Source of the DNA: a virus
Taxonomy: Duplodnaviria; Heunggongvirae; Uroviricota; Caudoviricetes
Virus record (IMG/VR): IMGVR_UViG_3300037455_000402
Span: 10,951 to 74,950 of that record
Strand: one strand, 5' to 3'
Length of the DNA stretch: 64,000 nucleotides
The notes below the pieces were generated by a model. That model was not told the DNA's origin. It was given only the letters and a program-made list of their open reading frames with translations, and searched no databases. The first letter of the stretch is position 1; each line of letters starts with the position of its first letter. The translations under genes were made by a program, and so were the position numbers. Shown piece by piece: positions 3,396 to 64,000 of this stretch.

Positions 3396-4013
3396 TGACT
3401 TGAAAACTTCATAAAAAATATGATTGCCAGTTTTTATCCTGTACTCATACAACGCTACGCATTATTCAGCCACAGTGACGATAAGTCTGAGCCCCATCCC
3501 CGTCGAGATGAAACTTCTTACCGCAGTTTCCGAAGAAACCCAAGCACTAAGGGGACTCTGTTTACCCCCAACTTTCACCCGTCATTCAGAATATTTGATT
3601 ACTATAAATCTTCTTTAAAGTTTTCAAACCAAACTGAGCCTTGGGCTACTCGCACCACCGTCAGGTTCTTACACGTTTCCGTGTAAGTGTAGGCTCAACT
3701 CCATTATTTTGCGTTCCCTGTATTTGCTCACGTCTTGCGGACGTGGTCTGCAGGGTTATTCCTCACTGAGGCGTCTATTGTTGGAGCAACCAGTTTAGGT
3801 GTGCCATTGCTCACGTTGCACCTGTGCCACGACTTCTCTCTTGATGGCTGGTATACCATCTTGTTCCGCCGCCTTTCGACTTCGGAAAAGAAACCTTATC
3901 AAGGTATCCCTTGACCTGACCTCTCAGCAGTTTCACCGTGCCCTTGCAGAGCTGACTAAGCCCTCATTTTAACACAAGGTTACAACATACTTTTTATGAA
4001 GTTTTCAAGTTTC
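3396..4013 (-). ncRNA. candidate large structured ncRNA (~620 nt; ROOL/GOLLD-like placement)
   Basis: no ORF >90 aa on either strand; 5' ACUUGAAAACUUCAUA and 3' UAUGAAGUUUUCAAGU form a perfect 15-bp terminal stem; sits between tRNA-Ile and tRNA-Ala. Confidence 0.45.
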
Positions 4014-12640: not shown

Positions 12641-12664
12641 ATCTTTTACTTCCTTTCTGATTTT

Positions 12665-12702
12665 CTATATATATTATAACAAAAATTTCTTTAAAAGTAA
12701 AG
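12665..12702 (-). promoter_or_regulatory. consensus promoter TTTACT-N17-TATAAT
   Basis: CTTTACTTTTAAAGAAATTTTTGTTATAAT. Confidence 0.65.
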
Positions 12703-12770
12703 ATTTTATTTGCTATAAAATTAAGAAAAGGCGATAGCTTATGCAGCTACCGCCCTTATTTTACGTTTAA

Positions 12771-13265
12771 TTAGCCTTCTACCTTATTGACAATTTCACT
12801 ATCACAAAGCAAGTAACGGTCAGAGAGCTGTGCTATCTGGTTATACCAAACATCACCTGCATATGCCATTACCCTGTCATAAAGGTTTGTATAACAAGCT
12901 AAGTAAAAACCTACAAACTGTCTATATGCTTTACGATATGCTATCGCCTTAGCAAATTCAATATCATTAGCGTCGCCGACTCTAAGTACAGCTGTGCCGT
13001 GATATTCATAGTCAGTAGGGTCGTAAATATAAGAGTTTGAGCCGCTTATCTTCTCGGGACGGCACCAAGGTTCGTGCGCCCACTTAAACTGAGGAGTAGC
13101 TGCAATATTCATACCAATCATCTGTGCTGTACGCATAAGGATATAGTAAGGGTCTCTCGCTTCAAAGCCCTCAAAAGTAACAAAGCAGTGAACCTAACTT
13201 CCTGCATAACCATATCTAACGTCCTTAACACGAATCTTCACATTAGGACAAGAATACTGAATTTC
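12771..13265 (-). CDS. hypothetical protein, reading frame contains one in-frame TAG (codon 26)
   Basis: MNEIQYSCPNVKIRVKDVRYGYAGS-TAG-VHCFVTFEGFEARDPYYILMRTAQMIG...; strong GAGGAGG RBS only at the upstream ATG (13265). Confidence 0.5.
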
Positions 13266-13301
13266 GTTCATTTTTAAATCCTCCTCAGAATTGATTTTAT
13301 T

Positions 13302-13652
13302 TGGTGGAGATGACGGGAATCGGACCCGTGTCCAAACCTCTTAGTATCTATCGTCTACAAGTTTAGGATTCCCGAGCCTGTTCTCTTCTTGCCGCGCTCT
13401 TTCGGGACCACGAATGGCGGTAGCGTATTGGTCATTAATACGACTTACTGTCACCAAGCCAGTAAGAAGAATAAAGAATAAAATCGAAAGGGATGATAGA
13501 GTTCTTCTTTATTAGTAAACTACGATAACCCTTATGAGCTGCGATTAGGCAGCAAATGCAAAATCGTTTGCGTTTAAGTTTAAGTTGGCTATAAGGTTGC
13601 CGACCACTTGCAGATAGGGAACGCCAAAGCCTGTCGAAACCTAAACATCCCC
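13302..13652 (-). ncRNA. ssrA: tmRNA (SsrA), tag reading frame ...ANDFAFAA-stop
   Basis: 5' GGGGAUGUUUAGGUUUCGACAGG matches tmRNA 5' consensus; 3' GGACACGGGUCCGAUUCCCGUCAUCUCCACCA tRNA-like end; internal GCAAACGATTTTGCATTTGCTGCCTAA = ANDFAFAA*. Confidence 0.8.
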
Positions 13653-13748: not shown

Positions 13749-13825
13749 TGGTTTCTCCGCTGCGATTCGAACGCAGGAATGGCAGTTTTAGAGACTGCTG
13801 TCTTGAGCCACTTGACGACGGAGAA
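13749..13825 (-). tRNA. amber suppressor tRNA(CUA), Gln-like
   Basis: U1-A72 acceptor TTCTCCG/CGGAGAA, D-arm TCGTCAAGTGGCTCAAGAC, anticodon stem GCAGT/ACTGC loop CTCTAAA (C34-U35-A36); CCA encoded. Confidence 0.75.
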
Positions 13826-14032: not shown

Positions 14033-14126
14033 ATGGCGGCAGGGGAGGGATTCGAACCCTCGGACCACCTCATCGGCGGTCGGTTCCTTAGCAGGGAACT
14101 GGTTTCAGCCAACTCACCCACCCTGT
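14033..14126 (-). tRNA. tRNA-Ser(GCU)
   Basis: type II; anticodon stem GTTCC/GGAAC loop CTGCTAA; long variable arm; G73; A2-C71 mismatch; CCA encoded. Confidence 0.7.
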
Positions 14127-14269
14127 CATTACAAGACACCTTTTCGATAAAATCGTCGTTCTGCTAACTGAACTATCCCCCTATATAATTGGCAGGGGGA
14201 GACGGAATTGCACACGTCGTTTACGGCTTGGATTGCATATCATAATATAGATTGCTGATGTGTCTTAAT
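14127..14269 (-). ncRNA. Y-RNA-like RNA with permuted tRNA-like domain (family member e)
   Basis: 5' AUUAAGACACAU-CAGCAAUCUAUA; 3' GGUGUCUUGU pairs with 5'; T-arm-like GACGTGTGCAATTCCGTC - TCCCCCT-G-CCA - loop - AGGGGGA-TA-GTTC AGTTAGCA GAAC (D-arm). Confidence 0.5.
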
Positions 14270-14344
14270 TGGTTGCCGCGCAAGGAATCGAACCTTGGTA
14301 CGAAGGGTTAGAGCCTTCAGTCCTGCCACTTAGACGACGCGGCA
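14270..14344 (-). tRNA. amber suppressor tRNA(CUA), second, Gln-like
   Basis: U1-A72 TGCCGCG/CGCGGCA, D-arm TCGTCTAAGTGGCAGGAC, anticodon stem GAAGG/CCTTC loop CTCTAAC; CCA encoded. Confidence 0.75.
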
Positions 14345-14349
14345 ATATT

Positions 14350-14427
14350 TGGTGTGCCTGATGGGACTCGAACCCATGACCCCCTGCTTAAAAGGCAGGT
14401 GTTCTAAGCCGACTGAACTACAGGCAC
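14350..14427 (-). tRNA. tRNA-Lys(UUU)
   Basis: anticodon stem CCTGC/GCAGG loop CTTTTAA; acceptor GTGCCTG/CAGGCAC; CCA encoded. Confidence 0.75.
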
Positions 14428-14500
14428 ATTATTAAATATAAGGATGCCACCCTTACTGTTGGGTGTTCTACCCAGCTTTAATCACTTTCCTCTCAACTTT

Positions 14501-14538
14501 CTATAAATATTATATCATAAATTTTTATAAAAGTCAAG
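14501..14538 (-). promoter_or_regulatory. consensus promoter TTGACT-N17-TATAAT
   Basis: TTGACTTTTATAAAAATTTATGATATAAT. Confidence 0.7.
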
Positions 14539-14556
14539 TTTTTATGTGGTGGGACT

Positions 14557-38802: not shown

Positions 38803-40281
38803 TCACTTCCAGCAGAACTGTGGACGTGTAAGTATCTGTGTCATAGCCTCAACAGAGTCCATTGTAATAAGAGTTGTAAGCTCCTTAAATGTTGCTGCTG
38901 AGCTACCAGAAACATATGCGATGCCAGGGTTGCCACACTTACTAATGAAACGATTACCACGAGAGCATACGTTCCACATAATAAGCTTAGGAGCAACAAG
39001 ACCAGCCTTAGCATAAGCCTTCTGCCACTTCTCAACGATAGTATCAACGTTGCCGCGTGAAGCGAAAGCGTCAATCTCACCGTCTGAGATTATAACAAGT
39101 GCCTCAGGTGCCTCGCCTGCCTTTATAGCAGTACGATAAATAGCATCGAAAGCGCCGTCGAGGTTAGTGTTGTAACCTACGTGCTTCATTACCTCGTTTA
39201 CACGAGAAGCAACGGTATCAGTTGGGTTAAGCTCATAAAGAGAAGGTCTGTCAGTGAATGTAAGGAAGAGGTTCTTGTAAGGACCTGAGTTACGCTCAGC
39301 AAAGTAAATACCAAGAGATACAGAAGTAGCAATTGGCTTATTACCCTCGCAGTACATAGAACCAGATACGTCTGACATTACAATGACATTGTGCTCACCC
39401 TCGACATAGTCAGGAAGAGCCTTCCACTGAGCCTCAAGAACCTTATCAACCTCAAGGTTGTAACGTGAATACCAACCTGAAGTCTGGTTAATGTAAGGCA
39501 TAATAAGGTCATATGGGTAAGATACACTTGCGTTAATCTTAGCCTCGCCCTTAGTAACAGCGTTAATGAACTTGTCAAAACGCTCATAGTCGTGACGACC
39601 GAAAGCAGAACGGTATCTTGTCATAGCGACAGATGGAACTGCCTGATAGTCGATAGCACCGAACTGGTTAGAAGACATCTTCTTCTCAACGACATCAAGG
39701 TACTTACGAAGAGCTGCGAGAGTCTTACGATATGTACGCTCGGTTATGCCGAAGTAAGTGTAGACCTTACGAGCAAGTCTACGAGTCTCCTTAGAGCTGG
39801 TGTTTGGAGAAGGAAGCCACTTAGCAAGAAGAGATATGCTCTCGTTCTTGGTCATGTCCTTAATATCCTTAGTAAACTGAGCCTTCATAAACTCAAGAGC
39901 CTCTGTCTCGACAGAAGTTCCCTCAAGGACGAACAAGTCGTCCCAACGACCTGCAGATACGATAGTATCAAGATTGCGAGCAACCTTTGCAGGGTCCTTA
40001 AGTGCAAGAGTCTTCAAAAGAGTTCTTGCAATTCTACGCTCACCGATACCACCCTCACGGATGTTACGAGCATAAAGTATCATATTGTCAGCAAGCTCCT
40101 TGTCAGAGTTGCGGGCATCAAGATACATACGGTTAAGCTCAGCCTCAGTAGCCTTACGCATACCACCAATTCTTGCAAAAAGGTTTAATACAGGGTTACC
40201 AGTAGTAGAGCAAACCTTAGCACCGTTCTCGGTGTAAGCTACATTTGTCTGATTTCTGAATGAGTTTGCGAAATTACTCAT
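38803..40281 (-). CDS. Ro60 ortholog (TROVE domain + C-terminal vWA; Rsr-like)
   Basis: 492 aa; N-terminal TROVE-like region (…NPVLNLFARIGGMR…); C-terminal vWA MIDAS VIVMSDVSGSM and ...PKLIMWNV... pattern comparable to Ro60 LLAVDVSASM...LIVCGMT. Confidence 0.6.
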   Translation of the reverse strand: MSNFANSFRNQTNVAYTENGAKVCSTTGNPVLNLFARIGGMRKATEAELNRMYLDARNSDKELADNMILYARNIREGGIGERRIARTLLKTLALKDPAKVARNLDTIVSAGRWDDLFVLEGTSVETEALEFMKAQFTKDIKDMTKNESISLLAKWLPSPNTSSKETRRLARKVYTYFGITERTYRKTLAALRKYLDVVEKKMSSNQFGAIDYQAVPSVAMTRYRSAFGRHDYERFDKFINAVTKGEAKINASVSYPYDLIMPYINQTSGWYSRYNLEVDKVLEAQWKALPDYVEGEHNVIVMSDVSGSMYCEGNKPIATSVSLGIYFAERNSGPYKNLFLTFTDRPSLYELNPTDTVASRVNEVMKHVGYNTNLDGAFDAIYRTAIKAGEAPEALVIISDGEIDAFASRGNVDTIVEKWQKAYAKAGLVAPKLIMWNVCSRGNRFISKCGNPGIAYVSGSSAATFKELTTLITMDSVEAMTQILTRPQFCWK

Positions 40282-41714: not shown

Positions 41715-42626
41715 TTAATGAGCTGCCATATCAGCTTCATGAAGAAGCTCATAAACTGCTCTCATTTCGCCGCCGTAAAGACGCTCAAACTCATCAATGA
41801 AATTGTCTCTGAAATAATACTCCATATGCCACTGAATAAGGACAATAAGTGCTGCATAAAAGTCGTACTGCTTAGAAGCAAACTGACCAACACAACAAGC
41901 TACCATATAGGCTCCCACTTCGTGGTGATTATAGAAATGTGAATGGTCATCTTCCTTGCCGTTATACTTCATACGGGACTTAACGACAGGCTTACCAATA
42001 TCGTGGAATAATGCGGCAGTACGTGCAAGATGCTTAAGGTTCTTATCCAAACCCTTCTCTGCCGCGTGGTCAGAAGCGTACTTACTTGCCTCTAACATAT
42101 GATGAAATATATCAAGCTGATGATGAGGATTATCGTGGTCTACACCACAAGCATCAAAAAGATACTCACCGAGCGTCTTCTTGTTCTTAGGATTTGGAAT
42201 CATACGGATAGAGTCCCAGCCCTCATCAAGACGAGGAAGAGACATTTCTCTATACATACGCCAGATAACCTCTTCAGGAACGTGACGCATACGATTAGCG
42301 TTCTGCTCTAAGATAACGTCGATTTCCGTAGCTGCTACTACAGCAATCTTCTTAACGTCCTTAGGAAGTTCCTTTAAAAAATTCTTTCTACGCTTACGAG
42401 ATAAGTTCGTTGCGTCATAAACACAAGACTGTCCATTTGCAAGGTAGTTCTTTATACGCTTATGAAGCTCGTTGAATACCTCGCCGTTATGAGACTGGTC
42501 GTCCTCAGAACCGAATAACTCTGCTCGGATAGCATCTGAGGAGACAATAGGACAGCCAAGGTCACGAGCAATGAATGACTTACCAGAGCCAGCTACGCCG
42601 ACCATCATATAAAATACAGCACTCAT
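41715..42626 (-). CDS. P-loop NTPase/kinase fused to HD-domain phosphohydrolase (candidate polynucleotide kinase-phosphatase or dNTP hydrolase)
   Basis: N-terminal MMVGVAGSGKSF Walker A; C-terminal HD motifs (LFHDIGK, HHEVGAY, H..D). Confidence 0.55.
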   Translation of the reverse strand: MSAVFYMMVGVAGSGKSFIARDLGCPIVSSDAIRAELFGSEDDQSHNGEVFNELHKRIKNYLANGQSCVYDATNLSRKRRKNFLKELPKDVKKIAVVAATEIDVILEQNANRMRHVPEEVIWRMYREMSLPRLDEGWDSIRMIPNPKNKKTLGEYLFDACGVDHDNPHHQLDIFHHMLEASKYASDHAAEKGLDKNLKHLARTAALFHDIGKPVVKSRMKYNGKEDDHSHFYNHHEVGAYMVACCVGQFASKQYDFYAALIVLIQWHMEYYFRDNFIDEFERLYGGEMRAVYELLHEADMAAH

Positions 42627-42696: not shown

Positions 42697-43848
42697 TTAT
42701 TTAAAAGATTTTATTGTTGACTCATTATCAGAAGTGTAAAGGTTAATCTTTCCTTCCGCCGCCGTAAGTATCTCTGTTCCTGCAAACTCATTAGTATGAG
42801 TTACCACAAGAGAAGGCTTAGCTTTAATACCCTTCATTTCAAAATACTTAGAGTCACGAATAGCTCTTGCTACTGCGGCGTTAGCTTCTCTTTGGTCAAA
42901 TTTACCATAACGAAGAGTTCCCTGATTAGGGTTAGGCACATTCGTAGCATCAAACATATCGGCATTGATTGCCGCCTTATCGCACTCAAGGTTAGAAGTC
43001 TGTCCTATCTGTCCCTTGCCGTGACGAGTAAGGTATGTACGAGTTACATAGAGGGTTTCAATATCTACTTCCCCCTTGTCAAAGTTCTGGGCGATTATCT
43101 GAGAAGGCACTTTCGCGCCGACATAGGCAGGAGTATTATGCTCGAAGTCATAATTGTGGTCATCCGCAAGAAGAAGTCCCTGACCATTCTCAAAGACGAG
43201 AAGAGGATAAGAATGGAGAAGCGCCTTCTCTTCTGTATCATTCTTAATCAAGGTAATATGGTCATAAAACCACTGGAAGTCCTCGTCAATATTTGGTTCG
43301 AGATATTCTCCGTGAAGAAAGTTAGTAACATCTTCAGGAAGTGTACCGTCCTTATCTCTAAGGACATCCTCATAATACTTGATTATAGTATCAAGATGAT
43401 AATGAGGTGTACCTGCCATTTCAGTACAAACCCTATGACGATTTAATGACTCCCAAACGCCGCATCCCGTAGATGAATGAGACTTATCGCCGCGGCGCTC
43501 TTCTACGTTTACATTTGCAAACATATCAACGGGAGATACCATAACGCCGCCTATTTTTGCATAGACCTTGGGCGTAATTCCCATAGCTTCAAGTTCTTCC
43601 CACTCACGTCTGAACATAGCGGGATTTACCATAAACTCTTCGGAAAAGTAAGTAGCGGCACCTTTGAGAGTACCGCTACCAAAGTGGCGGAAAACTCTCC
43701 TTACGCCGTTTTCTACTACCGTATGCGCCCTCTGACAAGAGTTTGAGGGCAGGATATTGAGACAGGTTGGTGTAGATACCGCATTGGCAACGAGTCCTTT
43801 CGACTCGTCACCATAGTTAAGTCCAGTTACGATTTTAATTTCCGCCAT
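42697..43848 (-). CDS. adenylosuccinate synthetase homolog (PurA/PurZ family)
   Basis: GLNYGDESKG (PurA GDEGKGK P-loop), AHTVV (GHT), STGCG (TTGRGIGP), YVTRTYLTRHGKG; 383 aa. Confidence 0.55.
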   Translation of the reverse strand: MAEIKIVTGLNYGDESKGLVANAVSTPTCLNILPSNSCQRAHTVVENGVRRVFRHFGSGTLKGAATYFSEEFMVNPAMFRREWEELEAMGITPKVYAKIGGVMVSPVDMFANVNVEERRGDKSHSSTGCGVWESLNRHRVCTEMAGTPHYHLDTIIKYYEDVLRDKDGTLPEDVTNFLHGEYLEPNIDEDFQWFYDHITLIKNDTEEKALLHSYPLLVFENGQGLLLADDHNYDFEHNTPAYVGAKVPSQIIAQNFDKGEVDIETLYVTRTYLTRHGKGQIGQTSNLECDKAAINADMFDATNVPNPNQGTLRYGKFDQREANAAVARAIRDSKYFEMKGIKAKPSLVVTHTNEFAGTEILTAAEGKINLYTSDNESTIKSFK

Positions 43849-46044: not shown

Positions 46045-46950
46045 TTACTTAATGAGACCTCTTGCAAGCTTCATTGAAAGTGAGCCACAAATCTTACCGA
46101 AGTTCTCAATCTGAGCTACAGTCTCGGGCTCCTCCTTTACACAGTCATTGTAAATTGCTCTTGGAAGATTCTTAGCGATTGTACCAAGGTCCTTCTCGTC
46201 CCAGTTCTCTGGAACAATGCCGTCCTCAACGAACTTCTGAATTGCCTTCTCAACTCTTCTTGGAGTTACGATAGTCTCTGCAAGAGCCTCTGCAGCCTGT
46301 CTTGCTGCAATCTTTGCAGGGTCAATGTCCTTCTGAGGCTTTGACTGATGAACCTCAGAGAACTCCTTTGCAACAATCTTTACATATGCAGGAGTACCGC
46401 TGAACTTATTGTCAAGTCTGTCCTGAGACTTAATAACTACACCCTCACCTGTAGGCTCACCGCCCATCTCTGTCTTACCAACAAAAGAGTAAACGTGCTC
46501 CCAAGAGATGAAAGGACCGTCGTAAAATACAGGAACCATCTTAAGACCGCAGAACTCTGCCATCTGCTTGGTCTGCTCCCATGGAATGTACTGCTCAATC
46601 TCAGTATCCCATACGTCGAAAACATAGAACTGCTTCATCTTCTCCTGTGGGTACTTAATAGTGTGCTTAACGAGCCACTCACCGAAGAAAATGTATCTTG
46701 TACCAAGTACACAAGAAATCATAGTAGGGTCAAGTGACTGAACATACTCGTAGAAACCCTGAAGGTTGCTCTCAGGAGTAAGCTCATTTCTTCTTGAAAA
46801 AGCAATAAGCTTACCGTCCTCGCCAACTGCGATTGATGCGTTTGCACCGTCTATCTTCTCTGTAATTGTAATATGCTCTCCCACCTTGAAAGCCTCAGCG
46901 AACTTGTCCTTGAGTCTCTCAATATCAACATACTTTTTCATTAACATCAT
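46045..46950 (-). CDS. RNA ligase, T4 Rnl2-like (nick-sealing family)
   Basis: motif I EKIDGANASI (T4 Rnl2 EKIHGTNFSL), FGEW, YVFDVWDTE, EGVVIK, KIVAKEF align with Rnl2 motifs. Confidence 0.65.
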   Translation of the reverse strand: MMLMKKYVDIERLKDKFAEAFKVGEHITITEKIDGANASIAVGEDGKLIAFSRRNELTPESNLQGFYEYVQSLDPTMISCVLGTRYIFFGEWLVKHTIKYPQEKMKQFYVFDVWDTEIEQYIPWEQTKQMAEFCGLKMVPVFYDGPFISWEHVYSFVGKTEMGGEPTGEGVVIKSQDRLDNKFSGTPAYVKIVAKEFSEVHQSKPQKDIDPAKIAARQAAEALAETIVTPRRVEKAIQKFVEDGIVPENWDEKDLGTIAKNLPRAIYNDCVKEEPETVAQIENFGKICGSLSMKLARGLIK

Positions 46951-52897: not shown

Positions 52898-53257
52898 TTA
52901 AATTCTAAAAGAGTAAACCTCATCTGACTTTGCTGCAATTAGTTGTGTATCTATTGGTGAAATAAATTCATCGACTACCGCCATATCCCAGCGGTCTCCA
53001 CGAGGCATATGGTCTGAGACAATTAAAACTTTAATTATATTACGTTTCTCTTTATCAATCAATTTAACTGTTGTAGAAGAAATAGTACAATCATAGCTTT
53101 TATTCATAGACAAAACTCTGTGGTCTTTTACCATAAAGGCAAGTATCCTATCCCTTGCCCATGTAAAATGTTTCTCATTAGCAACAGCAATACAAGCGGT
53201 AAAATTGTCTTCTGTTAAAAATCTATGAAGTAAAAAATTAATTTCTATATCGTTCAT
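52898..53257 (-). CDS. hypothetical protein (119 aa)
   Basis: ORF track; ATG overlaps TAA of upstream GIY-YIG gene. Confidence 0.5.
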   Translation of the reverse strand: MNDIEINFLLHRFLTEDNFTACIAVANEKHFTWARDRILAFMVKDHRVLSMNKSYDCTISSTTVKLIDKEKRNIIKVLIVSDHMPRGDRWDMAVVDEFISPIDTQLIAAKSDEVYSFRI

Positions 53258-54270
53258 TATGAATTACCTGCCGTACTATTGTATCCCCATGTATTTGCAT
53301 GGTAGAATGAAATGTACTCCTTTTCCTTTCCATTTAATTCGTCAGTATCACATTCAGCAAGAACTTCAAAAGTGAAATTCTCTGCACCCTCTTCCCACAT
53401 TGCATTATAAAGCTTATTAGAAGTACCTGGCTCTGCTTTTACACCACGCTTTAAGTGAGTACGCCAACGTTCCTTAAAAGCCTATTTTGTTTGTCCGATA
53501 TAAACTTTGCCGTTTTCGAGATTGGTGATTTTATAGATACCAGTATTGCCACGTCCAGTAACAACTCGTCCTACCATTTCATTGAATGGACGCTCATAAT
53601 AGTTCTTATAAATTAATTTGTAAAGAACAGAAGGGTCGTGAAGTTCGTCGGCAATTTTGCGAAGCTTCTTAACATCTTCAATATCATTTTCAGAAAGAAC
53701 AATACGATAGAAATTTTTATCTTCTTTAATCTTTTCTGCTCTTTTATATTCCTCAATGATTTCTTGCTATTTAGCTTCAGCAGCCTTGACTTCTTTTTCA
53801 AGTTGAGCCTTTTTAGCTTTCATTTCAACAGAGAAATTCTAAAATTCTTCTGATATGTTAATCTTCTACTGGTCATAATAATCCATTACAGATTGAAGTT
53901 GTAGAGCCCCTTCTTTTGATTTGTTCTGTACCTCAGTAGCAAGTTCTGCCGCCAAAGCTTGGAGCTAATCGTCTCTTCGCTTACGAGCTGCCGCAAGGTC
54001 CATATCTAAATTCTTTATAGATTCTTCAATGGAACGACGCTTTCTCGCTGCTTCTTCTATAGCATTACCGAGTTCAAGTTTAATAGCTAATTCTTCTTCA
54101 CTAATTCTTTTCTTACGCTTAGCTTCGAGAGCCTTAAGAGCTTCCTATTTGGCTGTTTCAAAATCTTTAACTGCCTTTTCAGAAACAGATATCTGCTGGT
54201 GAACGGCTAAACAATAGCCGCCCCAGCCCGCAAAAAGACAACAGATTATAGCAATAAAAATATATCCCAC
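53257..54270 (-). CDS. GIY-YIG nuclease-domain protein (N-terminal TM helix + coiled coil), six in-frame TAG codons
   Basis: single frame from GTG (GAGGTGG RBS) to TAA; C-terminal GIYKITNLENGKVYIGQTK-TAG-AFKERWRTHL...KLYNAMWEEG...NFTFEVL GIY-YIG signature lies downstream of the TAGs. Confidence 0.6.
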
Positions 54271-54281
54271 TATAATCCACC

Positions 54282-54860
54282 TCAGTTTATAAGAAGTTCC
54301 TTTGCCATTGGAAGTGTTTCAATCCAAGCGCAGAACTCTCTCCATTCAGGAAGCCTATGGTTTTTACGCTGTTTATAGATATTTCTAAGACAACGATAGT
54401 TAGTTGTCATTCGAGCAGTAATTCTAAAGCCGCATGGATTGCTGTAGAGAACTCTTAAATAGTTCTCAGGCGTAGGATTTTCAAGATACTCTGCTACAAG
54501 TTCTTTCATTATTACAATCATACGAGGGTCTACATATTCGATATATGCGTCATCAAGTTCAAACTTGGTAATACGATGCATTGTAGACTATGATGATACA
54601 AATTCGAGAAAACGATAACGTTCTGCTTCAACCCAAGCCTTATTGGTAAAAGTTAAGTCAAAGTTGACACGAATACCAGTTAAGAACTATCCGTGTGCCT
54701 AATTATCATTATCAACCGCCTTGATTAAATTCTCTATACGCTTTAAATCTTTGTCGCTTAATATCCTATTATAATCCTACAGTTCAGTTCTCATAGGATA
54801 ACCAGATGCAATTATAGAATTGGTAAGGTCATATACTTCTGCATTATTTACTATACTCAT
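54282..54860 (-). CDS. hypothetical protein with four in-frame TAG codons
   Basis: ATG 54860 overlaps TGA of upstream gene; frame MSIVNNAEVYDLTNSIIASGYPMRTEL-TAG-DYNRILSDKDLKRIENLIKAVDNDN-TAG-AHG-TAG-FLTGIRVNF...FVSS-TAG-STMHRITKFELDD... runs uninterrupted to TGA at 54282. Confidence 0.5.
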
Positions 54861-59447: not shown

Positions 59448-62400
59448 TTAAACGATATATTTACAAGTATCACTCGTAGGCCAATATAATGGTGTTGAAC
59501 CATGGAAATGTGCAGCGTGCTAATTTTCACAGTTAGCTATTTTGCTCATAATATTATCTGGTGATTCAGAATAAGTGTGTGTCTAATCATTATATACAAC
59601 TGGCTATTGGAAACCAGTACAGCTATGAAGATAGGCAATATTTGCCCTGTTATTAAATGTATCTACCGCAGCTGTACTATCTGTTTGTACAATTTTACCA
59701 TGCACGCTGGTATCTTGTCTATAGCCATTTGTCATATCAATACTAATACGAGCATCAGAAACCTAAGAAGATGTTGAGTTAAATATTTCACCAGTACAAT
59801 TATCATGATTAAATCTATTTACATCAAAATACTTAATATTGCCTATGAATTTAGCAATAAAGGTTGCAGTATAACGAGACATACCATCCGGTTGAGAAGC
59901 GCCTCCATTAATATCAATACGGTAACAAGAGTTTCCACTCTTATCATTTATAACGTAAAACTGTCTCCAACGACCACCATCAGTGACATAGTATAAAGTT
60001 GGGCTATCTCCATAATTGTAGAAATAACCTTCATATCTTCCTATCGGTGCGCACATTACAATTTTACCGAGTACAGTATCTCCAACTTTAACTTCGGGGT
60101 CTCCATCTGCTGTTTCGCCAGGGGATAACTATCCTGCCTATGGAGATATAGAACTCATGTTAATATTGTTATAAGCATTTATATATCCAGACAAATCATT
60201 CTTATCATCAGAGGCATCTAATCCAGTTAAACTTTTAACTGACGGAATATAGAAATACATTGCATGAACTAATGAGCTATCCCAATAAACGTCGCCCCAA
60301 CCTGTAGAACCTTCATTTGTTCTTCCGCCGCCTTGCCAAGGAGTCAAACCAACTGTTGTAACAAAAAAGGCTGGGTTCTTGGAAATATCCTTATTTGTGC
60401 CATAATAAGCTTTAATGAAATTCTTTACTGCTACAAGTCCATCATAGTTCAATGTTGCAGTAGTAGGATATTTACAAGATTTTTCTACTGGAGGCTAACT
60501 GTAACAAATATTATTGCCTAATCCACTTGGGCAATTATCTTTTTCACTACCATCGTAAGCTTTATTATAGGTATCCCATCTGAAACGATAATATCTGGTG
60601 TTTGTATTTGCAGAGTTATATACTCTTGTTTTAGTAACATTGCCTCTCATTGAAGTAAATTTATAAGTTGAACCAGCTTTTACAGAAGACATTGTAAAAG
60701 CAGTATCGCCGCCGTTATCTGTTGGTAAATAGTTTCCTATCTTTAATACATAAGCGTTATCAGTAAATAGGTTTTCAGAAGATGTTTCTTCTGCAGTTTT
60801 CTTCTTCCATGAAACTGTTTCACCCATATAGTATCCCTATCTATTTATGCCATAGTCACAAACATGAATTCCCTAATCATAAACAAGAGGTACATCTAAA
60901 TCAGTGGTAAAGCCAAAAGTGCTTGTTCTCTATGTCTAATTATTGTAAGTATAATAACCGAGAGGAGTAGTTGGCTGTCCAGCCATACCACTATCATCAA
61001 CAAGTTTTCTTGCGGCATCTTCAATAATAAAATAATTACCTTGAGAACTTCCAGTTGAAATTGTTATTTTTCCTTCATCGTCACGACTAAATGAATTAAA
61101 GAAAGGAGTAATTCTTAAATTACCATAACAAGTTTTCTTTTTTCCATCGGGACTTACTACAACCTAAGCTTTATCAAAAGGTCTTAGCCACATTATTCTT
61201 CCATTATAGTCCTGATTTGTACCATAAATAAAAGGAGAAAATCTCTTCTGTCCATTTTTTATGTGTTCATTACGTAATGAAATAACAAAAGCATATTCGT
61301 CTTCGCCATTTCTCTCGCAGACTTCTTTAAATTCCCAAGTCTGAGTTTTCTGATAATAAATAAAGAAGCCGGGGTAATAAACGCTACCATAATAATTATG
61401 TTTGTAATTATCAAAACGTAAATAAGGCATTACAACTAAATCCTATTCAGAATACTAATCACAAAGATAACTTAAACGCTTTTCAACGGTTTCTATAAAA
61501 TCATTTTTACTACCAACAAAAGTAACGGTATAGAAACCAGAAGCATCTACAGACCAATGAATTAATTCATCCCATTTATCAAACTTGTCATAATGACGAC
61601 AGTTCTCACTTTCACGTGGCGGCAAAGGAATATGAACAAAACGAATGTCACTCTTTGCTGTTTGATTTATTACGGCAATTTCAGTCCAAAGATAAAGAAC
61701 ATTCTCCCATAACTCTGAGACTTCTCTTGTTAATCCCTAAAGAGTCTTAGGAATTGGACCGTCAGTTCCAAATAGATAATTGCTAATAGCAGAAATAACT
61801 TGTGCGATTACCCAAAAGTTACGGTCTAAATCTTCTATCTCTACTCTGCGGCCGTACTGCGGCATTAAAAGCCTTAACCATTTTTCAATTAAGTCTTCTC
61901 CCTCTGCCTAATCATAAGCTTCACGGGTATATTGCATTGCAGTATCATTCTTTAATATCTCTAAAACTTCGTCTTTCTTTCTTACTTCATCATAGTTTTT
62001 ATCATCAATATTCCACCAAGGGTGAACCCATTCTTCTTCATTAGCTCTTTCTCCAATAGGGAAATTATATCCAGCATCAGAATTTTTAAGGTCAGCTATT
62101 GTAATACTATGTTCCTTAGTATCAAGAGGTAAAAGAATATTATCATTATTATTATCAAAATTATCAATTATATATTGAATAAGTTTCTAAACTGATTCAT
62201 TCCAATATTCATCTTCGCCGCCTTCTATTAAATCAACAATTCCGTCATATAATTTACTAACGAAAATTGGGTCGGTAGAACTACCATGGTCACGATGTAC
62301 GCAATCACAATTCTTTTCAATATAGTCCATTAAAGAATCCTAAGTCATTCCAGTTAAGGGAGAAGGCTCGCCATGGAGTGTGGCGAGCATATTCTTCCAA

Positions 62401-64000
62401 AAATCCTTCTATGTCTCAGGTGTTAAACCAATGGTCTATATTAACACACTTATATCAATAATTGTTTTTAAAGGTGTTAACCAGTTTTCCATTTAATCAC
62501 CTCATCTTGTATATCCATTATAAGGATATGCGTCATAATCAGGATATGTTGCTATTATCATATTATTATTAGGTCCTGCAGGATTGGTATTTGGAGTATA
62601 ATAGTTAATTCCAAGAATCTAATTCTTTTCTCCCTACTGCTAAACACTATAGCCTTTTTGAACCTAACAATAAGGAAAGTCTGTAAGATTAATGTCTAAT
62701 GTTCCCTCTGGAGTTGAACGAACTAAATCGCCACTTGTAGTAGGGTCATCTTTTTCTATCTTATAGCTATATAAACGTGGAATAGTATTGCTTCCACTCT
62801 TCTATAAATAAGCATAGTCAAAAAATGTTCTCATTATTAATTGTTTAGGATTTCTTCCACTATGCCAAATTGTTGACCCAGGGAATCTTTTATCTTTATC
62901 TCTCCAAGAGTGATAAAAGGCATCGGGATGACTTATTAAATCTGAATGGTCTCCTTCGATATTAGCCATAGTGATAATTTTTAAATACCAATCATCAACT
63001 TCCTAAACTAAACCTAAACCATGTTTAGTATAAAGTTCAAATCTATATGCTGAGGCGCCATTAGCTTCTGAATTTTCTGCCCATGCGCCAGGAACATTAT
63101 ATTCACTATATGTCCACATTGCTCCATTATTTGCGCCAGTACCAAATACATAAGGAGTATTACTTCCAGGCATATAAATAACCAATCCTAAATCAATACC
63201 TTGAGAACCTCTAATACCCTAATGAGGAACTAAAGTTGAATTTTCAACAGTATAATAAGTATATGTTCCGTGTGTTGGGTTATCTGTTCCTGCGTAGTAA
63301 TAATGACTTATCATTACGTAGAATTTAGATATATCTCGTTTTCCTTTTGCAACTATTTCTTCCTCAAAATATTTCTAAAGGACTTCATTTGCAGTTGCAA
63401 TTCTCGCTGCCTGATTAGTCTCTGCGGTCGCGCGGTCGCCATCTTGATATGGGAACATTTCAACACATTCAACTTCAATATGATGATTAAGTACAGCATC
63501 ATCATAAGTGCTAAGTAATTCTCCCTGATAATATCCTTTACTAATATTAATACTTCTTATACCCGGGTCTGCAGGAAACGGTACTGAATTTATTTCAGTT
63601 ACATAATCTACATAATCTTGACCTGAATAATTAATGTACTAAAAAGTAGAATAAATAAGAGTAGGTGTTCGTCCAATTAATCCCGCGCCTATATCGTGAA
63701 ATTCTATTTTTACTGTAATATAATGAGTATCATCAACTTCTCCAGCTATTTGAATATTATCTCTAAGAAGTCCATAGAATCTTGTTTCATCAGTAGTCTA
63801 TTCACTATCAGCATTAGATAAGAATGTTACGTATTTATATACATCTTCCTACTCCTATATTCCTACAATATAGTCTTTATAATCATTAACAGAGATTATT
63901 AATGGCTAAGTCATTTCCTCATCTTTATATAAAGGATGTATATCCCATGCTGCATTTTCTTTATTTCTGTCGTAAATCCAAACGCCTGGAAGCCATACAG
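59448..64000 (-). CDS. very large structural (tail-fibre/receptor-binding-like) protein, many in-frame TAG codons, continues beyond window
   Basis: ORF-track pieces 59763-60056, 60138-60452, 60495-60827, 61164-61430, 63003-63185 are all in one frame; checked junctions contain only TAG; Gly/Asn/Tyr/Thr-rich beta-type composition; TAA at 59448. Confidence 0.5.

Follow-up and report, generated by a model that had tools for sequence, protein, structure and literature searches.

A phage-encoded tmRNA beside amber suppressor tRNAs in a family of TAG-recoded phages

Phage-borne ssrA, the gene for transfer-messenger RNA (tmRNA), has been known since the Bxz1-like mycobacteriophages and is also found in huge phages; tmRNA itself is not a new kind of phage gene. 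The tmRNAs of such phages have been interpreted as translation support (PMC4131195, PMC12484599, PMC7162821). For phages that change their genetic code, the described gene sets consist of a suppressor tRNA with a release factor and/or an aminoacyl-tRNA synthetase (bioRxiv 10.1101/2021.08.26.457843). Here we describe a tmRNA gene in a 64-kb stretch of the IMG/VR virus record IMGVR_UViG_3300037455_000402 (the whole stretch analysed is called the window), where it lies next to two amber suppressor tRNA genes and an open reading frame (ORF) interrupted by TAG, in a phage that reads TAG as sense.

The window RNA resembles the one-piece tmRNAs of bacteria such as E. coli and B. subtilis in nearly every architectural respect: a tRNA-like domain with a G3.U pair, a T arm and a CCA end, a pseudoknot (PK1) that stands between helix 2 and the resume codon GCA, a short tag with a hydrophobic-Ala-Ala terminus, a stop codon placed in the helix 5 loop, and more helices separating the tag from the 3' domain. 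It differs from them in being encoded by a phage within a tRNA array, with no smpB nearby in the 64 kb, and in having a tag of just eight residues with Phe at position -3. In being a complete ssrA in a large, tRNA-rich phage of lytic type, it is like the genes of the Bxz1-like (cluster C) mycobacteriophages, phage G and the huge phages. However, no stop-codon recoding is mentioned alongside the tmRNAs of PMC4131195, PMC12484599 and PMC7162821, whereas two amber suppressors and a TAG-containing ORF flank the gene in the window, and some huge phages carry SmpB together with tmRNA, whereas no SmpB was found in the 64 kb of the window phage. Mycobacteriophage DS6A likewise carries an ssrA-derived sequence (PMC4131195), but that molecule has little beyond the tRNA-like domain and may titrate SmpB, while the mRNA-like domain of the window RNA is complete and conserved.

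Seen from the side of recoding, the phage is like the recoded gut phages of Borges et al. (bioRxiv 10.1101/2021.08.26.457843) in encoding its own suppressor tRNAs, and in keeping the standard code in its early and tRNA regions with recoded TAG in late and structural genes. Unlike the sets described there, its suppressors are accompanied by a ribosome-rescue RNA and not by a release factor or synthetase. The term tmRNA has no occurrence in that preprint, and we found no mention in the literature searched of tmRNA tied to phage stop-codon recoding. Because no such link was found, the conserved block of suppressors, tmRNA and TAG-containing ORF is a modest new observation.

A complete tmRNA gene in eight lineages

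A first-pass annotation of the window, made from its letters alone, had proposed a tmRNA with the tag ANDFAFAA at this locus and had named ARAGORN and the Rfam covariance model as ways to check it. Both agree with the proposal and place the gene on the minus strand: ARAGORN calls a tmRNA at 13302..13652 with the tag ANDFAFAA*, and RF00023 matches the identical interval over model positions 1-374 and scores 107.8 bits where the gathering threshold is 47 (E = 3.6e-41). The parts of the gene are as follows.

13302..13652, minus strand: one-piece tmRNA (ssrA), 351 nt, 3' CCA encoded (ARAGORN, RF00023 and covariation across eight lineages)
13302..13329, minus strand: 3' half of the tRNA-like domain (T arm 13313-13329, acceptor 3' strand 13306-13312, ACCA 13302-13305)
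13545..13571, minus strand: tag frame GCA AAC GAT TTT GCA TTT GCT GCC TAA, encoding ANDFAFAA and stop (direct reading)
13587..13605, minus strand: pseudoknot 1, tmRNA positions 48-66 (stem 1, 48-50/56-58; stem 2, 52-54/64-66)
13646-13652, minus strand: acceptor 5' strand, partner of 13306-13312, G3.U present

Read directly from the sequence, the 5' terminus is GGGGAUGUUUAGGUUUCGAC and the 3' terminus is GGACACGGGUCCGAUUCCCGUCAUCUCCACCA. The 5' GGGGAUG and the 3' CAUCUCC, on whose pairing the first-pass annotation had staked its call, form an acceptor stem of 7 bp that includes the G3.U wobble and is followed by ACCA. The T stem has 5 bp, and in the Rfam alignment the tRNA-like domain of the window RNA is fully canonical. 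The tag frame, GCAAACGATTTTGCATTTGCTGCC-TAA, opens with the resume codon GCA at 13569-13571 and its TAA sits in the loop of the next hairpin; the peptide obtained by direct reading is the one given by ARAGORN and by the annotation. Two 3-bp stems interleave to make PK1, and compensatory changes affect both of them in the eight-lineage alignment. In the region of PK2 to PK4, where the Rfam alignment has low posterior probability, nested helices 9-12 are conserved and covarying, and a long covarying stem reads AAUAAAGAA/UUCUUUAUU versus AACAAAGAA/UUCUUUGUU. The window gene is a complete, canonical tmRNA, far beyond what chance would give.

Relatives were recovered through the neighbouring ORF, by exact-protein look-ups and one homology search, and the same tmRNA is present in eight related lineages from other assemblies, designated here by L numbers. 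Its identity to the window is 100% in L176 (JGI 3300042986), 98.3% in L175 and L305 and 93.7% in L303; L304 is at 89%, the IMG/VR contig L020 at 86% and the L297-L302 group at about 80%, and every family member lies above the Rfam threshold, at 78-107 bits. Pairing holds in 97.1% of the structure cells of the eight-lineage alignment. Compensatory double changes are seen at ten pairs; column shuffles gave 3.8 +/- 1.5, with 0 of 500 reaching ten, and controls in which the partners were slid by 1-3 columns gave 0-2. The observed changes are located in helix 2, both PK1 stems, the AAUAAAGAA/UUCUUUAUU stem, the 3' helices and the T stem; G48-C58 in PK1 stem 1 becomes A-U in L298, G52-C66 in PK1 stem 2 becomes A-U in L303 and L298, and a T-stem pair turns from C-G to G-C in L304. 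The acceptor stem is invariant, with the G.U third pair (the alanine identity determinant) in all eight lineages, and there is likewise no change in the AAAC-GCAAA sequence at the resume codon, in the reading frame or in the TAA stop. Because compensatory changes coexist with an invariant acceptor stem, frame and stop, we read the gene as a functional tmRNA and not as a decaying copy.

Two parts of the family depart from this picture. The central PK2-PK3 region of the L020 tmRNA is strongly diverged, with a 17-nt length difference. The tmRNAs at L297:3150-3560 and L298:3197-3548, ~80% identical to the window gene, keep the ANDFALAA frame and score 78 bits in Rfam, and ARAGORN makes no call on them; their T-loop is GGCGGCU versus UCCGAUU and their D-loop is one G shorter, which may reflect a co-varying change of the D-loop and T-loop or a weakened tRNA-like domain. 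For the IMG/VR relative, the tag AAYKKNGLSLLTKKRP reported by ARAGORN is a mis-call, since the alignment puts the conserved ANDFALAA frame at the same position.

Wider searches extended the family little. Exact and degenerate tag patterns and a family-specific motif scan of IMG/VR found the same single relative contig only. Neither the tmRNA (BLAST, distant mode) nor 25 kb of the window (near mode) had a match in 50,697 GenBank phage records, so there is no cultured relative among them. A family hidden Markov model and BLAST found no close cellular tmRNA among ~200 sampled, among the matches listed, which argues, if weakly, against very recent capture from a sampled bacterium. The distant Thg1-linked phage relatives L002-L019 were without a match to the tmRNA family or to ORF166, the ORF next to the tmRNA, within 10 kb.

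Variation in the tag peptide

The tag is ANDFALAA in five lineages (L020, L305, L304, L297 and L298), ANDFAFAA in the window and L176, ANDFVLAA in L175 and ANTFAIAA in L303. Parsimony suggests ANDFALAA as the ancestral tag, and the window's Phe differs from it by a single C-to-T transition, CTT to TTT. The codon concerned, TTT at 13554-13556, is a Leu codon (CTT/CTC) in six lineages and Ile (ATC) in one; position -3 thus stays hydrophobic throughout (L, F, I), and synonymous changes (CTT/CTC, AAC/AAT) occur as well. Two unrelated sets of sampled tmRNAs have FAA at the end of the tag in 7 of 94 and 4 of 113 cases (3-7%), and the tags concerned are of ten distinct kinds, DNRQFAFAA and DKNQFAFAA among them. 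The first-pass annotation was thus right that FAA stands in place of LAA at the C-terminus, but it made too much of how unusual this is. On these comparisons the FAA ending appears uncommon but not unprecedented, a minority natural variant and a polymorphism within the phage family with no distinctive design. In work by Flynn et al. from 2001, the C-terminal LAA was reportedly the ClpX determinant in E. coli. The Phe is a derived, conservative variant of Leu, probably with little functional consequence.

Two further lines of thought about the tag were dropped. Positive selection was considered, with two changes in the 24 nt of the tag frame versus two in ~190 nt of flanking conserved domains, and these events are too few. 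ANDFALAA is also the tag of metagenome-assembled genomes of Aminicenantes, Planctomycetota and three uncultured Clostridia; as a route to the host this failed, the tmRNAs of these genomes, and of ~200 others sampled, being close to the phage family, among the matches listed, only at the universal ends and the tag.

The recoded phage and its suppressor-tmRNA block

All genes of the window lie on the minus strand, as do its 43 tRNA genes, 41 of which fall in 2.7-19.3 kb. When TAG is read as sense, longer minus-strand ORFs appear, among them a 1014-amino-acid ORF at 59448-62492 with 20 in-frame TAGs and an ORF at 62502-63998 with 13, while the tRNA and early region is nearly without them. Of the 82 ATG-initiated ORFs on the minus strand that reach 80 amino acids, 57 end in TAA, 20 in TGA and 5 in TAG, and all five TAG stops are artefacts, either fragments of recoded ORFs or overlaps with tRNAs. 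Codon 26 of ORF166 is TAG in seven of the eight lineages and CAG in L304, which supports TAG as Gln, at that single site. The element is a large phage recoded from TAG to Gln (code 15), with the Gln assignment drawn from one site. Its recoding with suppressor tRNAs, taken for granted in the first-pass annotation, is thereby documented in three ways: 20 TAGs within one frame, no genuine TAG stop, and the alternation of TAG with CAG. The closest relative is a 94-kb IMG/VR contig of data set 3300045988, another contig of which is described in a preprint as co-assembled from human faecal samples. Promoters of the form TTGACT-17-TGnTATAAT and GGAGGA ribosome-binding sites suggest a Firmicute-like host.

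The tmRNA is embedded in a compact block with the following further features.

12727..12757, minus strand: 13-bp intrinsic-terminator-like hairpin with a T run behind it, at the end of the putative transcription unit
12771..13271, minus strand: ORF166, 166 amino acids, ATG at 13271 behind a strong GGAGGA ribosome-binding site; in-frame TAG at codon 26, 13194-13196
13749..13825, minus strand: tRNA(CUA), amber suppressor A (ARAGORN, labelled 'Pyl'), 97 nt upstream of the tmRNA
14034..14127, minus strand: tRNA-Ser(GCU), between the two suppressors and inside the putative unit (ARAGORN, Rfam)
14270..14344, minus strand: tRNA(CUA), amber suppressor B (ARAGORN; Rfam tRNA, 52.2 bits), ~620 nt from the tmRNA
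14350..14427, minus strand: tRNA-Lys(UUU), first gene of the putative unit (ARAGORN, Rfam)
14509..14537, minus strand: promoter-like site TTGACT-17-TATAAT with an extended -10 TG, 11/12 matches (by consensus matching alone)

The order is therefore promoter, tRNA-Lys, suppressor B, tRNA-Ser, suppressor A, tmRNA, ORF166 and terminator. The promoter at 14537-14509 belongs to the nearest upstream copy of a repeat that we call D2, and the hairpin at 12757-12727 is the only terminator-like one on that strand before the next promoter copy at 12707-12649. From this layout the suppressors, the tmRNA and ORF166 would be co-transcribed. D2 itself is an intergenic repeat of ~60-90 nt with at least 18 copies at 2639-23376, in the first 25 kb of the window (for example 14485-14543, 12649-12707, 18768-18826 and 23299-23357). 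Its minus-strand sequence, AAAATCTTGACTTTT-N-TGnTATAAT-ATATAGAAAAGG, looks like a strong promoter of the sigma-70 type whose -10 is extended, and the copies would split the tRNA region into numerous short units of transcription.

In each lineage the two tRNA(CUA) genes stand directly upstream of the tmRNA, which bears out the earlier remark that the element carries its own tmRNA next to suppressor tRNAs. ORF166 follows directly 3' of the tmRNA in six lineages and beyond an inserted 138-amino-acid ORF in L297 and L298, and the order of suppressor, tmRNA and ORF166 is kept at ORF166 identities down to 55%, while the flanking tRNAs (Lys, Ser-UGA) and the homing-endonuclease inserts vary between lineages. 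The tmRNA lies inside a phage genome, with phage tRNAs, promoter repeats and ORFs on either side and the same layout in the 94-kb IMG/VR viral contig and several assemblies; it is phage-encoded and is no host gene at a prophage border. In L176 a tRNA(UUA), an apparent ochre suppressor at L176:3-78 that corresponds to window 14350-14427, is a probable assembly artefact, because the call depends on the loss of 2 nt from the T run in the anticodon loop of tRNA-Lys(UUU), just 3 nt from the end of a short contig.

ORF166 itself has no Pfam or PHROG match, and a Foldseek search of its model against the PDB gave nothing at E <= 0.001. The AlphaFold model (mean pLDDT, the predicted local distance difference test score, 68.8) has a small sheet and a 60-residue helix. 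We had considered ORF166 as a hidden SmpB-like partner of the tmRNA and ruled this out, as there is no family or fold match. To be made at full length, the protein would need the suppressors that are apparently encoded on the same transcript.

Protein families elsewhere in the window include an SF1 helicase, a GIY-YIG homing endonuclease, Thg1, two RNA ligases, a kinase/HD protein, a DUF2828/TROVE-type RNA-binding protein, an RNase H-like DUF458 protein and a PurZ-like adenylosuccinate synthetase. Some of these form a set of genes for RNA repair and RNA quality control, on the minus strand at 17996-18820, 21388-22512, 46045-46950, 38803-40281 and 15875-16399 (a Thg1-like tRNA-His guanylyltransferase, the two RNA ligases, DUF2828/TROVE, which is Ro-like, and the RNase H-like DUF458), and the set is consistent with a phage defending its translation apparatus against RNA-targeting host defences. 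A full-length ROOL RNA lies in the tRNA array at 3408-4003 on the minus strand, between tRNA-Ala and tRNA-Ile (RF03087, 264 bits versus a threshold of 99). The PurZ-like synthetase (phrog_1211, E = 2e-33) adjoins the kinase (AAA_33) and HD protein (42697-43848 and 41715-42626, minus strand), and together they could serve 2-aminoadenine (Z-base) DNA, or nucleotide or RNA-end repair. Homing endonuclease genes are found at differing sites in or near the tRNA block, a GIY-YIG type at window 53257-54318 (minus strand) and a NUMOD1 type at L175:458-1861, and differences in gene order between the relatives are in part due to such insertions.

Function and the link to recoding

The comparisons above make it well supported that the gene gives a functional phage tmRNA, one that would act through the host's SmpB, alanyl-tRNA synthetase (AlaRS) and EF-Tu. 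The RNA would be processed from a tRNA-type transcript and then charged with alanine by host AlaRS via G3.U; charged tmRNA, with host SmpB and EF-Tu, would enter stalled ribosomes with an empty A site, where translation would resume at GCA, add ANDFAFAA and terminate at TAA, so that the ribosome is released and the peptide is marked for host proteases. Since the 64 kb hold no SmpB gene, this function would depend on the host protein. Its most probable role in the infected cell would be to soak up an extra load of non-stop ribosomes. Such a load would come most specifically from UAG-terminated messages read through by the phage suppressors, and a second source would be damage to mRNA and tRNA, given the nearby RNA-repair genes. 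With tmRNA and suppressors in one putative transcription unit, the supply of tmRNA should rise together with amber suppression. That nonsense suppressors create trans-translation substrates is reported in a passage of PMC3985003 that cites Ueda 2002. Our preferred reading, held with moderate confidence, is that of a working phage tmRNA that absorbs the non-stop load coupled to suppression. The proposal of the first-pass annotation, that the tmRNA handles stalling which the phage brings on itself by recoding, is plausible, though unproven.

Several points weigh against such a link. Phages without signs of recoding carry tmRNAs too, among them the Bxz1-like mycobacteriophages (PMC4131195) and Bacillus phage G (PMC12484599). 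In IMG/VR we counted at least 120 tmRNA loci, at least nine of them in tRNA arrays and at least two of those (L199 and L266) with a tRNA(CUA), a tally that is suggestive at most and has no proper control; among the matches listed, two of the nine array-linked loci thus have a tRNA(CUA). Around the Thg1 gene of L002, a relative with a tRNA(CUA), there is no tmRNA within 10 kb. The conserved synteny amounts to about one evolutionary observation, because the eight lineages form one family, and the putative transcription units are drawn from consensus motifs only. No SmpB was detected in the 64-kb window by tblastn with approximate E. coli and B. subtilis queries (best E = 0.69).

These points lend themselves to another account, in which the tmRNA is a general supply for ribosome rescue, unrelated to recoding, and stands beside the suppressors merely as a consequence of the 43-gene tRNA array. 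Large, tRNA-rich phages would carry it along with their tRNAs and RNA-repair enzymes, so that translation continues when mRNAs and tRNAs are cut by host or defence nucleases. Such a role would fit the tmRNAs of non-recoded and huge phages (PMC4131195, PMC7162821, PMC12484599) and the seven of nine array-linked IMG/VR loci that, among the matches listed, have no suppressor nearby. With the RNA-repair set of the window (kinase/HD, two RNA ligases, Thg1, DUF2828/TROVE-like and ROOL RNA), ribosomes stalled on nuclease-damaged RNA would be an equally simple source of demand. However, a CUA suppressor is the immediate upstream tRNA in 8/8 lineages while the other tRNAs of the block vary, and a TAG-containing ORF lies downstream of the tmRNA in all of them, immediately so in six; with two suppressors among ~43 tRNAs, we estimate the chance of such adjacency at roughly 1 in 10. 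We regard general rescue as a serious possibility, though a distinctly weaker candidate than the suppression-coupled role.

Accounts in which the RNA does something other than ordinary rescue fare worse. A modified function, in which the Phe (or Val/Ile) exchanges at the ClpX-recognition end of the tag or the altered T-loop of L297 and L298 leave products that are degraded poorly or by another protease, or in which the RNA is a decoy titrating host SmpB, could draw on the tag, where two of the six differences between the very similar tmRNAs of the window and L175 fall within the 24-nt frame and alter residues -4 and -3, on the non-canonical T-loop GGCGGCU of L297 and L298 that ARAGORN misses, and on the phage molecule consisting of the tRNA-like domain only that has been proposed to titrate SmpB (PMC4131195). 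Yet every exchange at position -3 is hydrophobic for hydrophobic, 3-7% of the sampled tags have a natural FAA ending, the changes are too few to show positive selection, the frame, stop and PK1 are preserved and the tRNA-like domain of the window is canonical, so that we think a modified function improbable. A drifting, non-functional passenger, whether a captured host ssrA or the remnant of an attachment site, would be in keeping with the many phages that integrate into ssrA, with the position of most IMG/VR tmRNA matches, among the matches listed, at contig ends, as expected of host genes at prophage borders, and with the diverged PK2-PK3 region and 17-nt length difference of L020. But the window gene is full-length and has phage promoters, tRNAs and other phage genes around it, the sampled tmRNAs gave no close cellular homologue among the matches listed, and compensatory changes are maintained at divergence to ~80% identity in the tmRNA and 55% in the neighbouring protein. 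The last point largely refutes the idea of a passenger, which we consider very improbable.

The suppression-coupled role could be taken further. The two tRNA(CUA) suppressors, the tmRNA and the TAG-gated ORF166 might constitute an operon devoted to the 'code-switch' in a family of recoded gut phages, where one transcript would give both amber suppression and the rescue RNA for run-off on UAG-terminated host and early messages. ORF166 might then be a suppression-dependent effector or sensor, because it would be completed only once suppression is active. This extension is speculative, and we judge it rather unlikely.

A second, unrelated phage group in IMG/VR has a tmRNA directly after three to four tRNA-Thr genes (L199, contig 3300050821_010764; L252, 3300015360_001243; L266, 3300050138_000311). 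The tags of this group are ANDNAFAPLALAA and ANDFAFAEAA, and in two of the three loci a tRNA(CUA) lies 3-6 kb downstream of the tmRNA. The group may represent an independent co-occurrence of tmRNA and amber suppressor.

If the link to recoding is not real, the window holds one more phage-borne tmRNA, a documented kind of gene. Even so, the natural variants at tag positions -3 (L/F/I) and -4 (A/V) form a ready-made small series for studying degron tolerance. Recoded phages have to impose their code on hosts that keep to the standard code, and read-through of host messages that end in UAG must be coped with. A tmRNA in one block with the suppressors is a concrete, testable candidate for buffering that read-through, and it would extend the list of genes involved in code change, so far suppressor tRNAs, release factors and synthetases. 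If the block were indeed a code-switch operon, trans-translation would be an integral and previously unrecognised part of viral genetic-code switching.

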